Positions 5,266 through 64,000 of a stretch of 64,000 nucleotides of DNA are shown here, piece by piece. The DNA comes from Escherichia phage Sa157lw, in the sequence record OK322699.1. One strand, given 5' to 3'. The stretch's first letter is position 1. Each line of letters starts with the position of its first letter. Below the pieces are notes generated by a model that saw nothing but the letters and a program-made list of their open reading frames with translations, searched no databases and had not been told where the DNA came from. The translations under genes and the position numbers were made by a program.

Positions 5266-5302
5266 CTAAATACCCCATATTGGACATCCTTTATGGGGTA
5301 TT
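5266..5302 (+). promoter_or_regulatory. late-promoter motif CTAAATACCCC (5266-5276) within an 11-bp inverted repeat (5269-5279 / 5292-5302)
   Basis: AATACCCCATA / TATGGGGTATT exact reverse complements; right arm contains the GGGG SD of the ATG at 5306. Confidence 0.6.
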
Positions 5303-5305
5303 ATC

Positions 5306-7475: not shown

Positions 7476-7513
7476 CTAAATACCCCATATTGGCAAATCC
7501 TTATGGGGTATTT
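7476..7513 (+). promoter_or_regulatory. late-promoter motif CTAAATACCCC (7476-7486) within a 12-bp inverted repeat (7478-7489 / 7502-7513)
   Basis: AAATACCCCATA / TATGGGGTATTT exact reverse complements; right arm contains the SD for the ATG at 7518. Confidence 0.6.
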
Positions 7514-35200: not shown

Positions 35201-35821
35201 TCAATGACGAGCAGGGAGGACTCCCACTGGTTCGATGCCTTCGATCATCAGGGAGTCCACTCCAACATCGCTCAGGCGAATCCAAACCTTACCCCCTGGC
35301 CTTATCTCATAGATGTTCATCTCGTTTCCAACAGCAGACCCATTCACAAAAACGCCTTGAGTAGCAATCCGAATAGGCGTTTTGGTGTTGTTGATTATCT
35401 GAAAAGATATCGTGATATCCCTTGTCAATTCCACATTTCTTGCTTTTGTATATCTCCTCAATTTTTCAAAGAAAGATGGATTGAATGTGGCTATGATGCT
35501 GTTGTTTTGTGAGTAGTAAATACTGGCAGACAGATAAGGGATTTTTCCCTCATCACCTTTCCTCAATAGAGGGATCGTGGTTTTCCAGTACGGTCTCAAC
35601 GCCTGGTTGTTATCATCAAAACAACCGACGGCTTGTATGGTTTGGAAATTCTGGAAGTCTGCCACAACTTGATCCAGTAACTTTTTATTACATTTGTCGA
35701 CATCAGCAGAAATATTGACTGGTATAGTTCTGATTTCAGGATCCCAAAGATCGGTGACAGAAATCACGGACGTGACAAAGATACGGCAGCTTGTAAGTAC
35801 AAGCACCATTATCATCGTCAT
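35201..35821 (-). CDS. hypothetical protein with lipoprotein-like N-terminus, opposite strand
   Basis: Longest ORF in the 35.2-35.9 kb gap is on the minus strand; ATG at 35821; N-terminus MTMIMVLVLTSC resembles a lipobox. Confidence 0.4.
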   Translation of the reverse strand: MTMIMVLVLTSCRIFVTSVISVTDLWDPEIRTIPVNISADVDKCNKKLLDQVVADFQNFQTIQAVGCFDDNNQALRPYWKTTIPLLRKGDEGKIPYLSASIYYSQNNSIIATFNPSFFEKLRRYTKARNVELTRDITISFQIINNTKTPIRIATQGVFVNGSAVGNEMNIYEIRPGGKVWIRLSDVGVDSLMIEGIEPVGVLPARH

Positions 35822-35884
35822 GATCCATTTTCTGAATCCGCGTATCAGGAACACTAAAAAATTCTCCACAGCAAAGGTGCTAAC

Positions 35885-36382
35885 ATGACAGGTGTACAAT
35901 TCAAAAACGAAAATCCTAATTTCGCGGCTTCCGATAAATGGCGCTTAACCATCGGAGACCTGGTGCTGCTAACCCGTTCGATACACGACTTCAGTATCCC
36001 TGGCGTGTATTCCGAAGGTATCGAAGGCCCATCCCCTGGCGATGTCCTAAACTCTATACCTTCAGAACGTCTCACGTATGACCCCATCGTATTTACGTTC
36101 GTTATCGATGAGAGTTGGTACAACTGGGAACAGATTTACAATTGGATCGCTTCGAACGCGGGTTCAGATTTAGCCGTCAGTAGAGATATTACGATTGAAC
36201 TTTTAGACAACATGAACCGTCCTGTTGGGCTTCAGTTGCTTCTAGAAGAAGGGCGACCAACAGCGCTAGACAACGTGTTGGTTGACGTGGATGCATCGGT
36301 TCCTCAGTTGGTCACAACGGTGACATTCAAATATCTGAAACTGACTCCGACCCGCGTAACCCGCGAAATTGATAAACAATAA
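35885..36382 (+). CDS. hypothetical protein
   Basis: ORF with SD; no homology recognised. Confidence 0.45.
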   Translation: MTGVQFKNENPNFAASDKWRLTIGDLVLLTRSIHDFSIPGVYSEGIEGPSPGDVLNSIPSERLTYDPIVFTFVIDESWYNWEQIYNWIASNAGSDLAVSRDITIELLDNMNRPVGLQLLLEEGRPTALDNVLVDVDASVPQLVTTVTFKYLKLTPTRVTREIDKQ

Positions 36383-39157: not shown

Positions 39158-39535
39158 TCATTTATCTTGATTCACATAGGCGGGGGTTGCCTCGCCGTCT
39201 TTGTTAGAACCGAACAAACAACCCATCGTGTTGATGCATTGTTGTAGAACTTCCGGCTCAAGAATCTGACTCATCAGTTCTTCATTAGATTCCATCAGCG
39301 GGATGACTTTCACTTCCCGCGCCTGTCCTTGTTGGATAATGCCGATATACAGACCTTTGGTGTCTGGCAGTAACGGGATCACCATCATTGGTGTCACAAC
39401 AAACTTAGAAGTGCGATAGAGGCTGTGTAAGTAAACACCTTTCAATGTCGGTTGTTCTTCTACCAACATTGAAGACATTGAAAGGTTGGATTCTTGAACT
39501 TCCCCCACTGCATATAAACCCACGAATTGTTTCAT
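39158..39535 (-). CDS. hypothetical protein (125 aa), opposite strand
   Basis: Only long ORF in this gap; convergent with uvsW; plausible SD. Confidence 0.45.
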   Translation of the reverse strand: MKQFVGLYAVGEVQESNLSMSSMLVEEQPTLKGVYLHSLYRTSKFVVTPMMVIPLLPDTKGLYIGIIQQGQAREVKVIPLMESNEELMSQILEPEVLQQCINTMGCLFGSNKDGEATPAYVNQDK

Positions 39536-56069: not shown

Positions 56070-56379
56070 ACCGTTTGAACTTAAATTTCGCGTTTGGCAT
56101 ATTCCCCAGGTTCCTGGGATCGCTTTTCATGTTGAGGTTCCAACATTTGAAGAAGCGCAGCGCCTGAAGAATGCTCTGGGTGATTATGATTTGTTCCAGT
56201 TCAACAACAATATCAAGCCGGATTATTGCAATGCTTCGGGCATTCAGATTTATCAACATGATCTGACCGATGATGATCTTAATGATATGGGTCTGGATGA
56301 TCGTTGGGTTGATATGGAAGATGTTGACGAACTCAACGATTATTTCGAGCATCTGCGCAGTACAGGGTGGGAAATATGA
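56059..56379 (+). CDS. hypothetical acidic protein
   Basis: ORF with GGGAGAA SD. Confidence 0.45.
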   Translation: MSNKPFELKFRVWHIPQVPGIAFHVEVPTFEEAQRLKNALGDYDLFQFNNNIKPDYCNASGIQIYQHDLTDDDLNDMGLDDRWVDMEDVDELNDYFEHLRSTGWEI

Positions 56380-56684
56380 TTTCAAAATATATTGTAAAGC
56401 CTGGGGATACTCTGTCCAGCATCGCTCTAAAATTATATGGTGATGCCCAACAGTATATCAAATTAGCCAGATTCAACAATATCCAAAACCCAGGCCATAT
56501 CACGGTTGGTCAGGTTATTTGTTTACCCACACCTGTCGAAGACAAAGAACACATTATGATTCCGGTTCAACCGACTCAGAAGTGTTTGGATGCGATAGCT
56601 GGTTTATTTCGGCCAGGTTTTTGTGATGGAACTATTGAACGTCACATTTATCAAGCGATTGTGGAAAACGCAGGTGTAAAATGA
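56376..56684 (+). CDS. LysM domain protein
   Basis: YIVKPGDTLSSIALKLYGD...YIKLARFNNIQNPGHITVGQVICLP fits the LysM motif. Confidence 0.6.
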   Translation: MISKYIVKPGDTLSSIALKLYGDAQQYIKLARFNNIQNPGHITVGQVICLPTPVEDKEHIMIPVQPTQKCLDAIAGLFRPGFCDGTIERHIYQAIVENAGVK

Positions 56685-56890
56685 TCGGATTAATTCGTTA
56701 CCTGTTCATATTCGTAATTTCAACATTCATTTTATTTTTCTTTTTCAAATACTTGAAAGAGACTAAAATCTACCGAAGTAAACGTTGGCGCAAACGGGTG
56801 AGGGTAACTTTCCTGCTGCTGATTTCTTCGGTTACAATAACCGCACTCACATTGGGTGCATATATCTACATTTTTGAAGGGGTACATTGA
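56681..56890 (+). CDS. small membrane protein
   Basis: Two hydrophobic helices (FIFVISTFILFFFF; VTFLLLISSVTITALTLGAYIYIF); start overlaps LysM stop. Confidence 0.45.
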   Translation: MIGLIRYLFIFVISTFILFFFFKYLKETKIYRSKRWRKRVRVTFLLLISSVTITALTLGAYIYIFEGVH

Positions 56891-57681
56891 TGTTCAAGAA
56901 ATTGGTGTTCGGTGCAATTATGGTTCTGGCTGCAAGTCTACTTTCTGGTTGTGGTGGCGTTATCGATGAAGGTAATGTCGGCGTTCGCACCCAATGGGGT
57001 GAAGTAGACATGAACCCTGTAACAGCGGGGATCTACACCAGCTTTGTTTCAAGCGTGGATGTTTACACGACCAAAGAAGCCGTTGTGAGTCTGACTAAAA
57101 TGACGCCAAAGGCCAAAGACAACCTGACTCTGGAAGACTTGGATGTGGATGTTTATTACACACCCAATGTCGCAAAGGTTCCGTGGTTCCATACCAAATT
57201 TGCTGGCCAGAGCGCTGAACTCGATGATGGCACGATAGCGGTGGGTTTCAATCTAGTTAAAACTGCTGCAGCATCTTCTTCGATGGACGCCGTTTCTTCT
57301 CTTGATTCTATGACAATTCACACCCAACGTGCTGAATTAGAGAAGATGATTAAAGACCGCACTCAGCAACAATTAGAGACTGCTGCGCCTGGCATGTTCA
57401 CAATCACACGCGTGTTGGTCAAAAAGGCGCTGACGGATCCTTCTATTGAGCAGTCTATCCGTGATAATGTTATGGCGGACAAACGATTGGATACGGCAAG
57501 AAAGAACGTTGAAATTCGCGAGCAAGAAGCCCAAGCGAACCAGAAACTGACCACTTCGCTGACGCCTGAATATCTTCAACATGAATATAACATGGTATTA
57601 CAATCATGTGCCAATAGTGGAAAATGTACTCTGATCGTTGACGGATCCGGCTCAGGTAAAATGCTGAACGTCGGCAAATAA
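56890..57681 (+). CDS. lipoprotein with SPFH (band-7/prohibitin-like) domain
   Basis: Signal peptide with lipobox LLSGC; SPFH-like N-terminal segment (GNVGVRTQWGEV...TKEAVV...DVDVYY) and coiled-coil C-terminus. Confidence 0.5.
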   Translation: MFKKLVFGAIMVLAASLLSGCGGVIDEGNVGVRTQWGEVDMNPVTAGIYTSFVSSVDVYTTKEAVVSLTKMTPKAKDNLTLEDLDVDVYYTPNVAKVPWFHTKFAGQSAELDDGTIAVGFNLVKTAAASSSMDAVSSLDSMTIHTQRAELEKMIKDRTQQQLETAAPGMFTITRVLVKKALTDPSIEQSIRDNVMADKRLDTARKNVEIREQEAQANQKLTTSLTPEYLQHEYNMVLQSCANSGKCTLIVDGSGSGKMLNVGK

Positions 57682-57764
57682 ACGCTTTATTCAATAATAT
57701 TTGTTAGGTAAGCTGTAGTCCTCTTGTAGTGAAACATTGTAAACAACTAACTGGAGTAATCCGA

Positions 57765-58043
57765 ATGAACCGTACTGATTTTATCGCTCACATCGCCCAG
57801 ACTCAGGGTATGACCAAAGGCGAAGCAGAGAAGATCGTGGCATCCTTTATCAATGGCGTAAAAACTGCAGTCGCAGCTGGCCAATCTGTCCAATTCGTCG
57901 GCTTCGGCGCGTTTGAAGTTAAACATCAGGAAGCGCGCACTGGTCGCAACCCGCTGAACGGGCAAGCGATTCAGATCGAAGCGAAAAATGTTGTTAAATT
58001 CAAAGTCGGCGAAGGTCTGAAAGCTGCTGCCAACGGCCAGTAA
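57765..58043 (+). CDS. HU/IHF-family DNA-binding protein
   Basis: MNRTDFIAHIAQ...GFGAFEVKHQEARTGRNPLNGQAIQIEAKNVVKFKVG matches the bacterial HU consensus. Confidence 0.8.
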   Translation: MNRTDFIAHIAQTQGMTKGEAEKIVASFINGVKTAVAAGQSVQFVGFGAFEVKHQEARTGRNPLNGQAIQIEAKNVVKFKVGEGLKAAANGQ

Positions 58044-58091
58044 TCACATCCAGAGCGGTCGTGCCTAGCACAGCGTGTTAGGCTAAAAGAG

Positions 58092-58120
58092 AAAGCCGAG
58101 GTTAATGCCTCGGCTTTTTC
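58092..58120 (+). terminator. rho-independent terminator (AAAGCCGAGG-loop-CCTCGGCTTT plus T-run)
   Basis: Perfect 10-bp stem after HU gene stop. Confidence 0.65.
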
Positions 58121-58168
58121 GTTGTTGGAATTCGGGTAAACTATAACAGAACCCAAAGGAGGAACAAC

Positions 58169-59890
58169 GTGACAGCATTTAATCAATACCGAAAGGCGAT
58201 TGACGCCATAGGCCGTAAGGTTCCTATAGAAGAAATACAAAGCCTTGCCAAAAACGAATTTCCATATGACAAGGCGAACCAAGGCCAGATGGAATGTATC
58301 GTCGAAGCCGTTGATGCCTTGGTCAACAAAAAGGTCAAACACGTGATCATTGAAGCCCCAACTGGCGTGGGGAAATCTTTGATTGGGACAACAATTCATA
58401 AAGTGATTCGCCATTTGGTTTTACAGGCCGATCCTTATGGGCAATTCCGCACGTCTATCAGTACGCCCACCAAAGGTCTACAAGATCAGTATGCTGCTGA
58501 AAAGGCGGTGGCGATAGACATCCTGAAAGGCAAGAAGAACTATCGTTGCCACGTACACCCAGATGTGTATTACAACGCCGTGCAATGCCGTATAGCATGC
58601 CGCGACGGGCATTGTAGCAAACGCCGTTGTCCTTATGTACAGGCGCGCAATTTATGGACTGATATTTCGTCATTGCGTTGCACTAATGCAGCTATGATGA
58701 TTGAGATGTGCACCACCATCTGTATGAAGCCTGAAAACCGTTCCGATATGCTGATCTTAGACGAGTGCCATAAGATGCCCTCTACGCTCCTAGAGCACAC
58801 GATAATGGAATACAATACAAAGGCTGTGGATGGGCTGCGAACTATCCCCGAAGGGAAGGAGATAGTCTCTATCATTGCCGATATCGTAGAACGCACCAAG
58901 GACTATGTCTTGGGCAAGTTGTATTCCTTGTCCGGTGAAATGCATTCGATGTTTGAAGACCTCCATCTTAAAGTGGAGTCTTTGTTGGAAGTTCTTGAAG
59001 AATTGGTTGAAGATGACCGCCTGAGTGAAAGCCAGGTGATGAAACTCGCCGACATTATCGATGTACTACACAATCTGAGTGATTATTGTGGTATTATGTC
59101 TCAGACAAAGGCCAGCACCTTTATCGTACAGGAAAAGGGAGATGACTTTATTCGGTTTAAACCCGTCATGCCTTCTGATGTAAGTGAATTTGGATTGTTC
59201 AGGAAAGCCGATTACCATGTTCATATGTCGGCAACAATCTGCGGAATCGATTCATATGCCCGTTCCTTGGGTATCCGCCAGGGGGATTATCATTCAATAC
59301 AGATTGGAAATCCAATCCCAATTGAAAATCGGAAAGTCAACTATATGCCCATCGTTAAGATGACCAACAACATGGGCGATTATGAAATGAAAAGGCTGAC
59401 GGAATACATTGATGAAATAATCGCATTCCATCCAGGGCAATCTGGCATCATACATACGGTGAGCTATGATCGCGCATTAGCAATACAAAAATTCAGCAAA
59501 TACCAGAACTTTATCCATGTGCCACGCACTCGAAAGGCGTTGATGGATATTATGGAAAATGCCTTCAGGACAAAAACACCTTGTGTTATTGCCAGTCCGG
59601 CCATGGAAGAAGGATATGACTTCAAAGGTGATTACAGCCGATTCCAAATACTGATCAAAGTTCCTTACGATTATTTGGGTGATCCATTGATCGCACATAT
59701 TAATTCAGTGGATCCGTCTGCGTACTTCCGCAACGCAGTATTGCGCATTGTTCAGATGTGCGGACGTTCGGTCAGGGGTGTGGATGACTGGGCTGCAACA
59801 TACATAATCGATTCTTCCTTTGAATCTCTTATGATGCGCAACCCAGAGTTCTTCCCAACCTGGTTCACCGATGCAGTATTTGAAGTTTAA
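58169..59890 (+). CDS. DinG/XPD-like Fe-S helicase
   Basis: GTG start after AAGGAGG SD; Walker A EAPTGVGKS; four-Cys cluster (CHVHP...CRIACRDGHCSKRRCPY); DECH box. Confidence 0.7.
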   Translation: MTAFNQYRKAIDAIGRKVPIEEIQSLAKNEFPYDKANQGQMECIVEAVDALVNKKVKHVIIEAPTGVGKSLIGTTIHKVIRHLVLQADPYGQFRTSISTPTKGLQDQYAAEKAVAIDILKGKKNYRCHVHPDVYYNAVQCRIACRDGHCSKRRCPYVQARNLWTDISSLRCTNAAMMIEMCTTICMKPENRSDMLILDECHKMPSTLLEHTIMEYNTKAVDGLRTIPEGKEIVSIIADIVERTKDYVLGKLYSLSGEMHSMFEDLHLKVESLLEVLEELVEDDRLSESQVMKLADIIDVLHNLSDYCGIMSQTKASTFIVQEKGDDFIRFKPVMPSDVSEFGLFRKADYHVHMSATICGIDSYARSLGIRQGDYHSIQIGNPIPIENRKVNYMPIVKMTNNMGDYEMKRLTEYIDEIIAFHPGQSGIIHTVSYDRALAIQKFSKYQNFIHVPRTRKALMDIMENAFRTKTPCVIASPAMEEGYDFKGDYSRFQILIKVPYDYLGDPLIAHINSVDPSAYFRNAVLRIVQMCGRSVRGVDDWAATYIIDSSFESLMMRNPEFFPTWFTDAVFEV

Positions 59891-60654
59891 TAACCTGCAA
59901 TAAACGATAAATGGCACTTGATATTTGGTTCAAGTGTCGTTATCGTGATGATCATATTATCCACATCTTGACTAAAAGATATATTTGCTATTGGTTTAGT
60001 CTGAACGTGGTTGTACAGGCTGTATATCAAATCTTCACCACGGTATCCGACTTTACCATCAGTATCCTGCCAATGGCCTAACGTGGATTCATGAGCATGT
60101 ACTCGGAATTCTATCATATGGAACAATGCTTTTGGGATTGTTTTCAGTATGCTGGTTCCGACAACAGGGATATCAATAGCAGAGTCGTTGGAATTGCCCT
60201 CATATACTGAAGCCCAACCAAATGTTGGATCTCCTCCCGCCACGGGAGTTCTCTTCCAGTATTGGAATTCTGGATTACCCGAAGCGTTCTTTTGCAGAAG
60301 GATTACTTCACCGCCTTCAAAATTAGAAGTGTCTATATCATCACGTGCTAATAAATCAGCTGGAGAACCAATAAATTTCCAGGTTTCGCGATCTAAAATA
60401 GACTTATAATAATCGGTGAATACGTTGCTGTCGTTAGCTGCATTGATTGCGTCTTTAAGACCTTCACCTGTGACCATCTCATTGAGTTTTAGCCACATGT
60501 TTTTGACAGCTGACGCAGCTGCGACTTGACCTTCAGTCCCACCCGCCGTGTAGTCATAAACGATGTCCAGCTTTTGTATGGAATCATTTATAGACAAGAG
60601 CAAACGCTCAATTTCTGGGGCGGTCAGACTGAAACGATATGCGCGTTCTGACAT
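59887..60654 (-). CDS. hypothetical protein (255 aa), opposite strand
   Basis: Minus-strand ORF with GAGGAA SD; no homology recognised. Confidence 0.45.
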   Translation of the reverse strand: MSERAYRFSLTAPEIERLLLSINDSIQKLDIVYDYTAGGTEGQVAAASAVKNMWLKLNEMVTGEGLKDAINAANDSNVFTDYYKSILDRETWKFIGSPADLLARDDIDTSNFEGGEVILLQKNASGNPEFQYWKRTPVAGGDPTFGWASVYEGNSNDSAIDIPVVGTSILKTIPKALFHMIEFRVHAHESTLGHWQDTDGKVGYRGEDLIYSLYNHVQTKPIANISFSQDVDNMIITITTLEPNIKCHLSFIAGY

Positions 60655-60696
60655 GATTCGTTCCTCATCGATAAAACCAGTTTGGGATACTTATAC

Positions 60697-61224
60697 ATGA
60701 TTGAAATATACACTGACGGGGCATCTTCCCCGCAGAAGACACAAGCCGCAGGTTGGGCATTTGCTATCGGTCCAATCACTGGAGAGCAATGGAAAGTGTT
60801 TTATGGGTATTTACCCCCACCGTCAACGAATAATATCGCTGAGTTGCTTGGGGTTATAAACGCCTTGAAGATTCTATGGAAATTCTCTAATTGTGGGGAA
60901 CGCTGTATTCCCTCAGCCAGTATTATATCCGACAGCCAATATGTTATCAATAGTGTTTTGGAGTGGCGTAGAAAATGGGAATATGAAGGAATGCCGCCTA
61001 AGAACACAGAACTTCTGCTCGAGTTGTTCGATTATTATGACAAAGTTTGTTCAATTTGTGAACTTGAATTAAAATGGGTGAAAGGTCATGCGGGGAATAT
61101 CGGCAACGAAATCGCAGATCAGTGGAGCGTCAGAGCCAAAGAAAATAGCTCGATGGTTCTTGAAAATAATCGTTTCCTGGTCAGAAAGGTTGTTGGTTCT
61201 TTCAATGAATTCATTGGTATTTGA
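60697..61224 (+). CDS. ribonuclease H (RnhA-type)
   Basis: IEIYTDGAS...NNIAELLGVINALK...IISDSQYVINSVLEWRRKWEY...WVKGHAGNIGNEIADQ matches bacterial RNase HI active-site segments. Confidence 0.8.
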   Translation: MIEIYTDGASSPQKTQAAGWAFAIGPITGEQWKVFYGYLPPPSTNNIAELLGVINALKILWKFSNCGERCIPSASIISDSQYVINSVLEWRRKWEYEGMPPKNTELLLELFDYYDKVCSICELELKWVKGHAGNIGNEIADQWSVRAKENSSMVLENNRFLVRKVVGSFNEFIGI

Positions 61225-61235
61225 GGATTATCACG

Positions 61236-62006
61236 ATGGGTATGAATTTTGTAGACAGGGGTGATAACGTCACCAAATATTTCACTGACGAAGATAACGA
61301 TCGAGTTGTGGGGATATTGCGTGATTGGATCCCTGCTCGTAAAAAGGCATTAGCCGAAGGAACACCCCTACCAAGAATCCCCAATTATGTGGCCATGAAT
61401 GTTCAGATGATAATCAAGAATATGAGTATGCGTTACAACTACCGTGATTATCCATATCGTGAAGACATGGTGAGTGAAGCGGTTGTGAACATCCTTCGTT
61501 ACCTTCACACCTTTGATGTTAGCCATATCGGCAAGAAAGGAAAGATCAACTTCTTCTCTTGGGTGACTATGTGTGCCGATCGCTCATTCGCCAAGAAACT
61601 CACGAGTGAAGAAGAACACAACTACATTAAATTGCGTTCCTTTGAAGAAGCAGGTGGGTTCGCAGCTTTATCGGATGACCCAGACTTCCAACAACAAACC
61701 TTCGTTGATAGCACTGGGATAACGATGGACTTTCGTGAACGCATCGGTAATTTCGAAAATAAGAAAGAAGCCCAGCGTGAAAAGGAACGCCAAAAGCAAA
61801 CGGCTATCAAAGAAGAGGAAAAGAATAAGAAAATCCCTCGCGGTATACTTCGATGTCTTACGAAGAGTGTAAATACCATTACCGCTGACGCCGAAGACAA
61901 TTCAGATAATGACTTCGGCTCTACTCAATTTAGTCTTGAAGATATAATGGACAGCCCCACATTGTTAGCCGAATCAGTTGGAGAAAAGAATAATGGCGAT
62001 TGCTAA
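61236..62006 (+). CDS. gp55: late sigma factor gp55-like
   Basis: ATG 61236 with GAGGA SD; central region EDMVSEAVVNILRYLHTFD...FFSWVTMCADRSFAKK parallels T4 gp55 QEMIADGIEASIKGLHNFD...YITQACFNAFVQRIKK. Confidence 0.6.
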   Translation: MGMNFVDRGDNVTKYFTDEDNDRVVGILRDWIPARKKALAEGTPLPRIPNYVAMNVQMIIKNMSMRYNYRDYPYREDMVSEAVVNILRYLHTFDVSHIGKKGKINFFSWVTMCADRSFAKKLTSEEEHNYIKLRSFEEAGGFAALSDDPDFQQQTFVDSTGITMDFRERIGNFENKKEAQREKERQKQTAIKEEEKNKKIPRGILRCLTKSVNTITADAEDNSDNDFGSTQFSLEDIMDSPTLLAESVGEKNNGDC

Positions 62007-63108
62007 AATTGGCGATTTACACATCGGGAGCCGCAATGGTTCCCGTTACGTTCGTGAATTCATAAAGAATTATCTCATCAACTATTTTATTCCCGAATTG
62101 GTAGATGCAGACATTAAAGAAGTTTGGCAATTCGGCGACACATTTGATGTTCGTAAATTTATGTACGGGCGCGACAAAGATTGGTTGAAAGATGAACTGA
62201 CTCCAGCCCTGAGAAAGGCGGGTATCAAATGGAATGGCATCGTTGGAAACCATGATATCACCTTAGAAGAATCTAACCGTATCAACTGGCCATCCTATCT
62301 GAATGAATTAGCGCCAGACGTCTATCATTATTACAGTGAACCCACTGAAGTTTCGATTGAAGGCGAAAAGGTATTGCTTCTCCCATGGATCAATAAAGAG
62401 AATTATGATGCATCTGTTAAAGCGATACAAGATACAGACGCCAAGTACTGTTTTGCGCATCTGGAGTTGGCAGGGTTCAAAATGTACCAGTCCTCTGTAT
62501 GTGATAAAGGTCAGATCGACGTGGCGCTCCTTTCCAAGTTCGAACGCGTGGATACCGGACATTTCCATACCCGTTCGATGGAAGGTAACATTCAGTATAT
62601 TGGGACTCCTTATCACCTTACCTGGGAAGACCATAAAGACGGAACGAACCGAGGATTCTATGTAGACGACATGAAAGGCGGGGAATTGTTTATTCCCAAC
62701 AACGAGCAACAAACGTTGTTCCGATTCATCGAATACGACTACACCCAAATGTCTTCCGACACCGAAGGAAACTGGATTGACCCAGATTGGCTAAACAATG
62801 GTTTGGGTATTGAAGGGCAAATCGTTAAAGTGATTGTACAGAACCGCGATAATGCCAAGCATTATGAAAAGTTCTGCGACGCGCTGAAGCGCTGTAAATG
62901 CATCGATTACAACTTTATAGATCGGACTATCACAGTCTCGTCTGAGAAGGTAGAAGTCACTGAAGAGATGGTGGCGACTGATGCTGTGGAAGTCCTAAAG
63001 AAAGATATCCGCGCCGCCAATAATATCCAGCGCCCTGAAAATGTTTGCAAATTAGCAGAACAATTCTATAATGCTGCCCAACAACGCCTGAACACATTGG
63101 ATGCATAA
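61993..63108 (+). CDS. gp47: recombination nuclease gp47 (Mre11/SbcD-like)
   Basis: N-terminus MAIAKIGDLHIG vs T4 MKILNLGDWHLG; GNHD metallophosphatase motif. Confidence 0.75.
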   Translation: MAIAKIGDLHIGSRNGSRYVREFIKNYLINYFIPELVDADIKEVWQFGDTFDVRKFMYGRDKDWLKDELTPALRKAGIKWNGIVGNHDITLEESNRINWPSYLNELAPDVYHYYSEPTEVSIEGEKVLLLPWINKENYDASVKAIQDTDAKYCFAHLELAGFKMYQSSVCDKGQIDVALLSKFERVDTGHFHTRSMEGNIQYIGTPYHLTWEDHKDGTNRGFYVDDMKGGELFIPNNEQQTLFRFIEYDYTQMSSDTEGNWIDPDWLNNGLGIEGQIVKVIVQNRDNAKHYEKFCDALKRCKCIDYNFIDRTITVSSEKVEVTEEMVATDAVEVLKKDIRAANNIQRPENVCKLAEQFYNAAQQRLNTLDA

Positions 63109-63110
63109 TA

Positions 63111-64000
63111 ATGAGCAACGTAGATCTATTATCAAAATTTGGTTCGCTGTTGAAAGAAGCGGACGCTCCTGTTATTGTTGAAGCACCATTTGAAATCCGT
63201 GGGGAAATTACTCACAAACTGACTTTCCATCGTGGTCGCGCTAAGAACTTTCGTTCTATCGGTAATGAATTCATGGAAATTGATTACCAACGCAATTCGG
63301 CAACCTTGGTTACATCCGATGACAATGGCGCTGGTAAATCCACCATGCTTGTCTGGCTGCTGTTCTTCGTTCTGTACAACGACACGTACAGCAAGAAAGA
63401 GAAGAAAGCCGGATTGGTTAACTCTCAAAACAAAAAGGAATGCGTGGGTGAAGTTGAGTTCTCAACTCGCGGTAGTGAATGGAAAGTCCGTCGGGGTATC
63501 AAACCAGATTTTGTAGAAGTTTATCAGATGGTGGAAGGAGAGTGGAAGCAAGTCGTGAACGATGCGGCCAAAGCTGATATGAACAAGTACATCGTGAATC
63601 TCATCGGCGTGGACCAGAAGATGTTCGAGAACTCTTTGGTTCTGGGCAAGGAGAAGTTTATTCCTTTCACAGAGATGTATACCGCTGACCGCCGCGCCAT
63701 GGTTGAAACAATTTGGGACTTGGGTTTCTTCAGCCTGATGAATGAGGATGTTAAAGCATCTATCAAGGCGGTAACGAACGAACTCACGACGGTCACCAAT
63801 GATTACGCCTTTCATGATGTGAATCTAAAAGGCCAGCAAGCGCAGTTGGAACAGATCAATAATTCCAATGCGATGGTTCAGCAACAATCTGCGGATATCC
63901 TTGTCCAAGAGAAGGAACGTCTGAATAGCCTGAATTCAGATATCGGCGCAGTGCAGGAACAACTGACCGAGTCCCGTGCTCAAGACTCTAAATTGGAATC
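63111..64000 (+). CDS. gp46: recombination ATPase gp46 (Rad50/SbcC-like), 5' portion; continues beyond window
   Basis: ATG 63111 right after gp47 stop; Walker A DDNGAGKST; coiled-coil beginning; no stop in window. Confidence 0.7.
   Translation, partial: MSNVDLLSKFGSLLKEADAPVIVEAPFEIRGEITHKLTFHRGRAKNFRSIGNEFMEIDYQRNSATLVTSDDNGAGKSTMLVWLLFFVLYNDTYSKKEKKAGLVNSQNKKECVGEVEFSTRGSEWKVRRGIKPDFVEVYQMVEGEWKQVVNDAAKADMNKYIVNLIGVDQKMFENSLVLGKEKFIPFTEMYTADRRAMVETIWDLGFFSLMNEDVKASIKAVTNELTTVTNDYAFHDVNLKGQQAQLEQINNSNAMVQQQSADILVQEKERLNSLNSDIGAVQEQLTESRAQDSKLE

Follow-up and report, generated by a model that had tools for sequence, protein, structure and literature searches.

We report on positions 58,169 to 61,224 of a 64,000-nucleotide stretch of Escherichia phage Sa157lw (sequence record OK322699.1); the whole stretch is called the window below. 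On the plus strand the locus holds a helicase gene and an RNase H gene, and between them lies a gene of the opposite orientation that encodes a 255-amino-acid protein. We believe that the locus belongs to a plus-strand string of replication and recombination genes in which one reversed late virion gene is embedded, and we consider this reading quite probable. A preliminary description had taken the three genes, together with the HU gene at 57765, for a horizontally acquired DNA-metabolism cassette; that proposal fell, since the middle gene encodes a virion protein, the gene order is family-wide, the relatives are phage proteins and the composition is ordinary. The main features of the locus are as follows.

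58169..59890, plus strand: gene of a superfamily 2 (SF2) helicase of the XPD/DinG (Rad3-like) superfamily, 573 amino acids, homolog of Vi01_106c
59887..59890, both strands: palindromic TTAA that gives the TAA stop of both convergent genes, a 4-nucleotide tail-to-tail overlap
59887..60654, minus strand: presumed late gene of a 255-amino-acid virion structural protein, homologs Vi01_105, Sajous1 gp203 and LIMEstone1 ORF093
60663..60666, minus strand: Shine-Dalgarno sequence GAGG, 8 nucleotides upstream of the ATG of the 255-amino-acid gene, kept in the seven genera aligned
60688..60695, minus strand: T4-type late-promoter-like element TATAAGTA, 7 of 8 matches to TATAAATA, starting 41 nucleotides upstream of that ATG
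60697..61224, plus strand: gene of a type 1 RNase H (RNase HI), homolog of Vi01_104c, PF00075

Results

The helicase, minus-strand, RNase H and HU reading frames listed in the preliminary description are all present where it placed them. The minus-strand frame is a real gene under purifying selection: relative to four other genera its differences amount to 52-58% at third and 7-20% at second codon positions, and the plus-strand shadow frame lying over it is broken by stop codons in those same genera. This codon-position evidence upholds the earlier view of a gene wedged between its neighbours and divergent from the RNase H gene, and the roughly 40 nucleotides then given between the two starts measure 42 from the RNase H ATG at 60697 (27 if the TTG at 60682 is used instead).

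The product is a virion component, not a DNA-metabolism protein; its presence in the particle is known from published mass spectrometry of relatives. Sajous1 gp203 (locus Sajous1_203), a "putative structural protein", gave 39 spectra in CsCl-purified virions (PMC10892097, Table 6), and the list of LIMEstone1 virion proteins includes ORF093, a 28.3-kDa product covered to 40.8% by 8 peptides (PMC3296691, Table 2). Over this region Sajous1 is 99.3% identical to the window; ORF093, which GenBank lists as a "confirmed structural protein", is 83.5% identical to the window protein. Expression from the minus strand, on which the preliminary description had made its claim depend, is thus borne out by a product detected as protein in the virions of relatives.

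The protein has no Pfam or NCBIfam match, and its PHROGs matches are to families of unknown function only. An exhaustive profile search returned a small, phage-only family with 58 representatives among 1.8 billion proteins, nearly all of 245-260 amino acids. About one third of these distant representatives match only residues ~3-137, which indicates that an N-terminal module is conserved and the C-terminal domain is exchanged, as happens in tail-fibre and adaptor proteins. One protein of 4145 amino acids (P0278) matches residues 140-209 in six repeats. The GenBank record of SeF3a labels the homolog "baseplate wedge protein".

Concerning relatives, a megablast search with window positions 57700-63200 matched 277 phage records, which are Ackermannviridae or phages of their hosts (Salmonella, Klebsiella, Escherichia, Dickeya, Serratia and others); 249 of them cover at least 80% of the query. 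The window is identified as a Vi01-like Kuttervirus (Ackermannviridae). The top matches, Salmonella phages FSL SP-063, FSL SP-029 and Guerrero, are 99.5% identical, and Vi01 is 99.3% identical. In the RefSeq record of Vi01 the order is Vi01_107c (DNA-binding protein), 106c (DNA helicase), Vi01_105 on the other strand ("conserved phage associated protein"), 104c (rnhA, RNase H) and 103c (late sigma factor, gp55), followed by 102c (gp47) and 101c (gp46). Because this record carries all these genes, everything in the preliminary description had already been annotated; the stretch is an already-annotated, family-wide part of the conserved Ackermannviridae core genome.

The order helicase, reversed structural gene, RNase H, gp55, gp47, gp46 is shown by 249 of the 277 records and is kept in Limestonevirus, Agtrevirus, Taipeivirus and Miltonvirus, and also, the reversed gene included, in Vapseptimavirus and unclassified Vibrio phages; identity in the Vibrio phages drops to 30-35% for the structural protein and to about 47% for the helicase. 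Delftia phage PhiW-14 (record L007, 4971-10399) has RNase H, gp55, gp47 and gp46 linked and no adjoining helicase. Its gp222 is a homolog of the N-terminal half of the 255-amino-acid protein, lies at the same site, and is co-directional with and upstream of these four genes; being on the same strand as RNase H, it suggests that the reversed orientation in Ackermannviridae came about by an ancient inversion or re-insertion. The window as a whole is almost entirely plus-strand, and the only other sizeable minus-strand reading frames free of overlap are 35201-35899 (232 amino acids) and 39158-39535 (125 amino acids).

A clue to the role of the virion protein comes from its C-terminal part, for which profile-profile and structure matches agree.

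59890..60186, minus strand: C-terminal beta-sandwich, residues 157-255, putative homolog of the C-terminal domain of T4 gp9

The AlphaFold model built from 27 close homologs only was weak (predicted local distance difference test score, pLDDT, 64), and the model from an alignment of 54 sequences reached a pLDDT of 87.8 with the same top matches. The best structural match is gp9; all those that follow are the N-terminal parts by which phage tail fibres or tailspikes are anchored in the virion. In hhalign comparisons the family profile scored 69.6% (E 4e-5) against T4 gp9 alone and 94.4% (E 9e-8, 98 columns) against an alignment of eight diverse gp9 proteins, with residues 157-255 placed on gp9 176-282, colinear at the C-terminus; only the C-terminal domain was aligned. 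As negative controls, the N-terminal 400 and 300 amino acids of the TSP4-like and TSP2-like proteins of the window were compared by hhalign with the same profile and showed no similarity to it. For the N-terminal ~150 residues no gp9 counterpart was detected. From the gp9-like C-terminal domain and the family-specific N-terminal module we infer a trimeric peripheral baseplate or fibre-adaptor protein.

The region upstream of the reversed gene was aligned across seven lineages. At the position of TATAAGTA, which abuts the RNase H start codon, a perfect TATAAATA (8 of 8) is found in Limestonevirus, Agtrevirus, Taipeivirus and Miltonvirus, and xCTAAATA in two Vibrio phage lineages. TAAATA or TAAGTA is conserved in position in all seven; the element ends 25-36 nucleotides before the ATG and is followed by GAGG. 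The LIMEstone1 record marks the -10 element of a "putative late promoter" just upstream of ORF093, and the gene of the late sigma factor gp55 lies 0.5 kb from the promoter-like element.

61236..62006, plus strand: gene of the gp55-type late sigma factor (T4), phrog_234 at E 1e-53 and RefSeq annotation
61993..63108, plus strand: gene of the gp47/SbcD-like recombination nuclease subunit, phrog_100 at E 9e-109 and RefSeq annotation

The exact T4 word was tried as the promoter word of Kuttervirus and rejected: TATAAATA has one match in 64 kb for 2.4 expected and, not being enriched in the window, is not that word. CTAAATA, often continued as CTAAATAcc or CTAAATAtc, occurs 10 times on the plus strand and once on the minus strand, and nine of the ten plus-strand copies lie within about 70 nucleotides upstream of a plus-strand start codon, those of all the large tailspike-region genes among them. 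In three tailspike-region genes an inverted repeat AAATACCCC ... GGGGTATT starts within CTAAATA and ends 3-8 nucleotides before the ATG; it would form a conserved 5'-leader hairpin in late mRNAs.

2038, 5266, 7476, 12184, 18699, 22949, 27730, 28948 and 37619, plus strand: CTAAATA
2038-2081, 5266-5305 and 7476-7502, plus strand: CTAAATA with the inverted repeat, tailspike-region genes

Judged by its sequence and placement, CTAAATA is a strong candidate for the late-promoter word of Kuttervirus. The paper on phage CBA120 (PMC3184105) says that no late-promoter sequence had been identified for the family, and CTAAATA gives Kuttervirus a clear candidate motif.

At the other end of the reversed gene the 4-nucleotide overlap with the helicase gene, annotated also in Limestonevirus, Taipeivirus and Agtrevirus, leaves no room for a terminator between the convergent genes. 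Below the structural gene the terminator scan found no terminator-like site on the minus strand before a hairpin located beyond the helicase gene, so that a late transcript would probably run antisense through the whole of that gene.

58092..58117, either strand: GC-rich hairpin between an A-run and a T-run, terminator-like both ways

The scan found this hairpin on the minus strand, and AAAGCCGAGGTTAATGCCTCGGCTTTTTCG reads as a plus-strand terminator too; the LIMEstone1 record has a terminator annotated at the equivalent position. The hairpin is likely to end the HU transcript and possibly ends the late antisense transcript as well. In the scan for sigma-70 promoters and terminators over 57.5-62.2 kb, matches were no commoner than in shuffled sequences. 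It found no sigma-70-like plus-strand promoter in front of RNase H, and for this reason transcripts to RNase H, gp55, gp47 and gp46 must presumably cross the structural gene antisense.

The helicase gene has a GTG start and an AGGAGG Shine-Dalgarno sequence, and contains the following sites.

58355..58378, plus strand: Walker A (motif I) APTGVGKS, residues 63-70, GxGKS invariant in 119 homologs
58547..58630, plus strand: putative 4Fe-4S domain with four cysteines, C127-x12-C140-x8-C149-x4-C154, assigned by position and invariance
58760..58771, plus strand: motif II DECH, residues 198-201, with D, E and H invariant and C in 103 of 119 homologs

The protein matches PF13307 (Helicase_C_2) with 46.2 bits at a cutoff of 25.3, has DEAD and ResIII matches in Pfam besides, and corresponds over its full length to phrog_2488 "DNA helicase" (E 5e-265). 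The Pfam search gave no match to PF06733 (DEAD_2), which is present in one distant homolog (P0090). NCBIfam scores are far from the equivalog level: 60.5 bits for DinG NF008729 (cutoff 598), so that it is not a DinG equivalog, 53.9 for YoaA (cutoff 680) and 26.8 for Rad3 (cutoff 247). Cysteine conservation was followed in a MAFFT alignment of 119 non-redundant homologs of 32-97% identity. Eight cysteines lie between Walker A and DECH; C127, C140, C149 and C154 alone are invariant (119 of 119), and C144, C171, C181 and C185 vary. The preliminary description had called the helicase Fe-S and DinG/XPD-like on account of a four-cysteine cluster between these motifs and had named missing ligands as its refutation; since the four cysteines are invariant on alignment, the claim survives. 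A phmmer search of the Protein Data Bank (PDB) gave E. coli DinG (6fwr) as the sole match, at 24.6 bits, with C149 and C154 aligned to DinG C199 and C205, two ligands of its cluster, which extends over C120...C205. The four-cysteine domain is presumably a 4Fe-4S domain. A zinc finger was considered and found less likely, given the canonical position within a Helicase_C_2 protein.

We found 575 homologs of the helicase, and the close relatives are all phage proteins. Homologs of about 37% identity adjoin genes of DNA polymerase B, UvsX and a DnaB-type helicase, or lie on a 262-kb phage-like contig. By sequence the helicase appears to belong to a phage-specific XPD/DinG clade.

The RNase H matches PF00075 with 88.2 bits (gathering score 25.8) and is colinear with residues 5-144 of E. 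coli RNase HI at ~33% identity and ~40 bits. Its catalytic set D7, E49, D79, H131 and D141 (D-E-D-H-D) is conserved and aligns to E. coli D10, E48, D70, H124 and D134. It reaches 70.5 bits for NCBIfam RnhA NF001236, below the equivalog cutoff of 160. No match to the FEN or 5'-3' exonuclease-type family (T4 Rnh) was found; the matches are PF00075, phrog_531 and phrog_3265 only. The protein is therefore of the RNase HI type and not of the T4 flap-endonuclease type, as had been described. Its close relatives are all phage proteins, and cellular RNase HI follows at 31-38% identity, from non-enteric bacteria. The RefSeq record of Vi01 uses the ATG at 60697, which appears to fit the conserved core best. 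Elsewhere the start is annotated inconsistently, and some upstream starts overlap the divergent structural gene by 50-140 nucleotides (records L010, 1928-2551, and L006, 4421-5119).

The fourth gene of the supposed cassette lies upstream of the hairpin.

57765..58043, plus strand: gene of an HU/IHF-family DNA-binding protein, homolog of Vi01_107c, PF00216 and RefSeq

Its identity as an HU-family gene is confirmed by 102.4 bits for PF00216 (gathering score 22.4), and it scores under every NCBIfam HU and IHF equivalog cutoff. The best PDB matches are IHF and Bacillus HU; E. coli HU-alpha is weaker, at 59 bits. The profile searches suggested in the preliminary description were thus run for the helicase, RNase H and HU, and the family assignments hold. 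Just upstream of HU lie genes with an SPFH/Band-7 domain (56887-57681) and a LysM domain (56367-56684), whose products the Vi01 record labels lipoprotein and "endolysin", respectively.

Discussion

XPD/DinG-type helicases, which unwind in the 5'-3' direction, have D-loops and R-loops among their substrates, and RNase HI clears the RNA strand from RNA:DNA hybrids. A T4-like phage replicates in a recombination-dependent manner and ties late transcription to that replication. We propose that the plus-strand string would comprise early or middle genes, namely those of the HU-like protein, the helicase, RNase HI, gp55 and the gp47/gp46 nuclease. The reversed gene would be transcribed late from a gp55-dependent T4-type promoter in the 42-nucleotide spacer beside the RNase H start, and the GAGG ribosome-binding site would serve translation of the 255-amino-acid protein, to be built into the virion. 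Late transcription would probably run past the shared TTAA stop, cross the helicase gene in antisense and reach the hairpin at 58092-58117; it is a possibility that this antisense transcript helps to shut off the Fe-S helicase gene late in infection. The helicase and RNase HI, as far as family membership tells, would find their substrates in the RNA:DNA hybrids, D-loops, R-loops and primers of recombination-dependent replication. The enzyme families, the T4-like replication and the adjacency of gp46/47 together suggest roles in primer or R-loop removal and in the processing of recombination intermediates.

Several points weigh against parts of this reading. The Kuttervirus element TATAAGTA differs from the T4 consensus at one position and from the CTAAATA that recurs in the window at two. 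Since we found no transcriptome study, and no transcript data, for any Ackermannviridae phage in the literature, the use of the promoter is something that we infer. Mass spectrometry of purified particles tells that the 255-amino-acid protein is part of the virion but does not place it in the baseplate. The Pfam gp9/10 models PF07880 and PF23618 miss the 255-amino-acid protein even at E<=10 (T4 gp9 itself obtains 247 bits in the test with the N-terminal gp9/10 model, PF07880), and the profile of the protein has no match among PDB sequences. Finally, the preference for an iron-sulphur cluster over zinc comes from the position and invariance of the cysteines only.

The cassette hypothesis supposes that HU, the helicase, the antisense gene and RNase H are of host type and were acquired horizontally as a unit. 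It can point to PF00216, PF13307 and PF00075, all best known from bacteria, and to T4, which uses a different RNase H and has no XPD-like helicase. However, the wedged gene encodes a virion protein, and one gene order is shared throughout the family, even where identity falls to 30-47%. Taipeivirus, VAP7 and K444 have no HU gene beside the helicase, which means that the four genes do not move together; PhiW-14 shows linkage of RNase H with gp55/47/46 and none with a helicase. The host homologs are remote (24.6 bits for DinG; ~40 bits and 33% for RNase HI), the NCBIfam equivalog cutoffs are missed widely, phage proteins come closest to the helicase and to RNase H, and for the HU protein E. coli HU is a poorer match than IHF and Bacillus HU are. 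The GC content (0.42-0.51), third-position GC content (GC3) and codon-usage correlation of the four genes do not stand out from the range covered by 28 other genes in the window. We consider this hypothesis very improbable: recent or joint acquisition is not supported, and an ancient cellular origin of the HU, helicase and RNase H families is not disputed. Still harder to credit, and in our opinion negligible, is the idea that the opposite-strand frame is a selfish insertion, i.e., a free-standing homing endonuclease or a moron. The gene does break an otherwise co-directional string, and LIMEstone-type phages do have opposite-strand homing endonucleases between core genes; yet it contains no nuclease or other Pfam domain, occupies the same site in every lineage examined at 55-97% identity and under strong purifying selection, and has a product abundant in virions, and its PhiW-14 homolog stands at the same place in co-directional orientation. 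The identity as a homing endonuclease or moron was rejected on the absent nuclease domain, the conserved site and the virion product.

A further alternative accepts the virion protein and disputes its place: it could be a head-decoration, neck or internal ejected protein that merely reuses a gp9-like fold and is no baseplate connector. The silence of mass spectrometry about location leaves room for this, as do the match of just ~100 residues to gp9, the failure of the Pfam gp9/10 models and the statement of a 2024 review that the family lacks gp9-gp11 (PMC11721090). On the other side, the next structural matches are all virion-anchoring N-termini of tail fibres and tailspikes, the profile-profile probability is 94.4% with a colinear C-terminal placement, and the tailspike N-terminus controls are negative; we regard the alternative as unlikely. 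The more specific proposal that Ackermannviridae do have a gp9 counterpart, namely this 255-amino-acid late protein acting as the adaptor to which either the branched tailspike complex or the "prongs", as a trimeric appendage, would dock, is put forward tentatively, at somewhat less than even chances. It is mildly new because of what the review states, and we rate it a modest refinement rather than a discovery. In the literature we found gp9 likeness described only for the XD1 domain of TSP4 (PMC8825819).

More than 250 phage genomes already carry annotations of the genes considered here. A virion protein without an assigned role gains a testable assignment as a gp9-like connector, and this assignment is of interest for the way in which the baseplate holds the branched tailspike complex or the "prongs"; Ackermannviridae are biocontrol candidates against Salmonella, E. 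coli O157 and Dickeya. The compact four-cysteine domain is unusual, and the helicase clade could serve as a minimal model for Fe-S helicases.

Comparison with known systems

Vi01_104c-107c, LIMEstone1 ORF092-095 and Sajous1 gp201-204 agree with the window in genes, order and strands; over the region Vi01 is 99.3% and LIMEstone1 ~83% identical to it. Published Ackermannviridae annotations assign the structural protein no function and are silent on the Fe-S-type cysteine cluster; otherwise there is no substantive difference.

T4 gp9 (PDB 1QEX), the connector between baseplate wedge and long tail fibre, is likewise a virion protein, of 288 amino acids against 255 here, and its C-terminal beta-sandwich appears homologous. 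The N-terminal coiled coil and the middle "XD1" sandwich (PF07880) of gp9 are undetected in the 255-amino-acid protein, which has in their place a helical region of ~105 residues and a small beta unit. Unlike the gp9 gene, that of the 255-amino-acid protein is remote from the baseplate cluster and reads in the opposite direction, and Ackermannviridae, unlike T4, are without long tail fibres.

In comparison with E. coli RnhA, the phage RNase H is ~25 residues longer at the C-terminus and its "handle" is less basic. The helicase resembles E. coli DinG and archaeal and eukaryotic XPD in Walker A, DExH, Helicase_C_2 and the four cysteines between motifs I and II; with 573 amino acids it is much shorter than DinG (716), and its cysteines span 28 residues against 86 in DinG.

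Late expression in T4 depends on gp55, gp33 and gp45 and on the promoter TATAAATA. Here a gp55 homolog adjoins the locus and a putative -10-only element stands at the right distance; unlike T4, the element is TATAAGTA, and the late-type word recurring in the window is CTAAATA.

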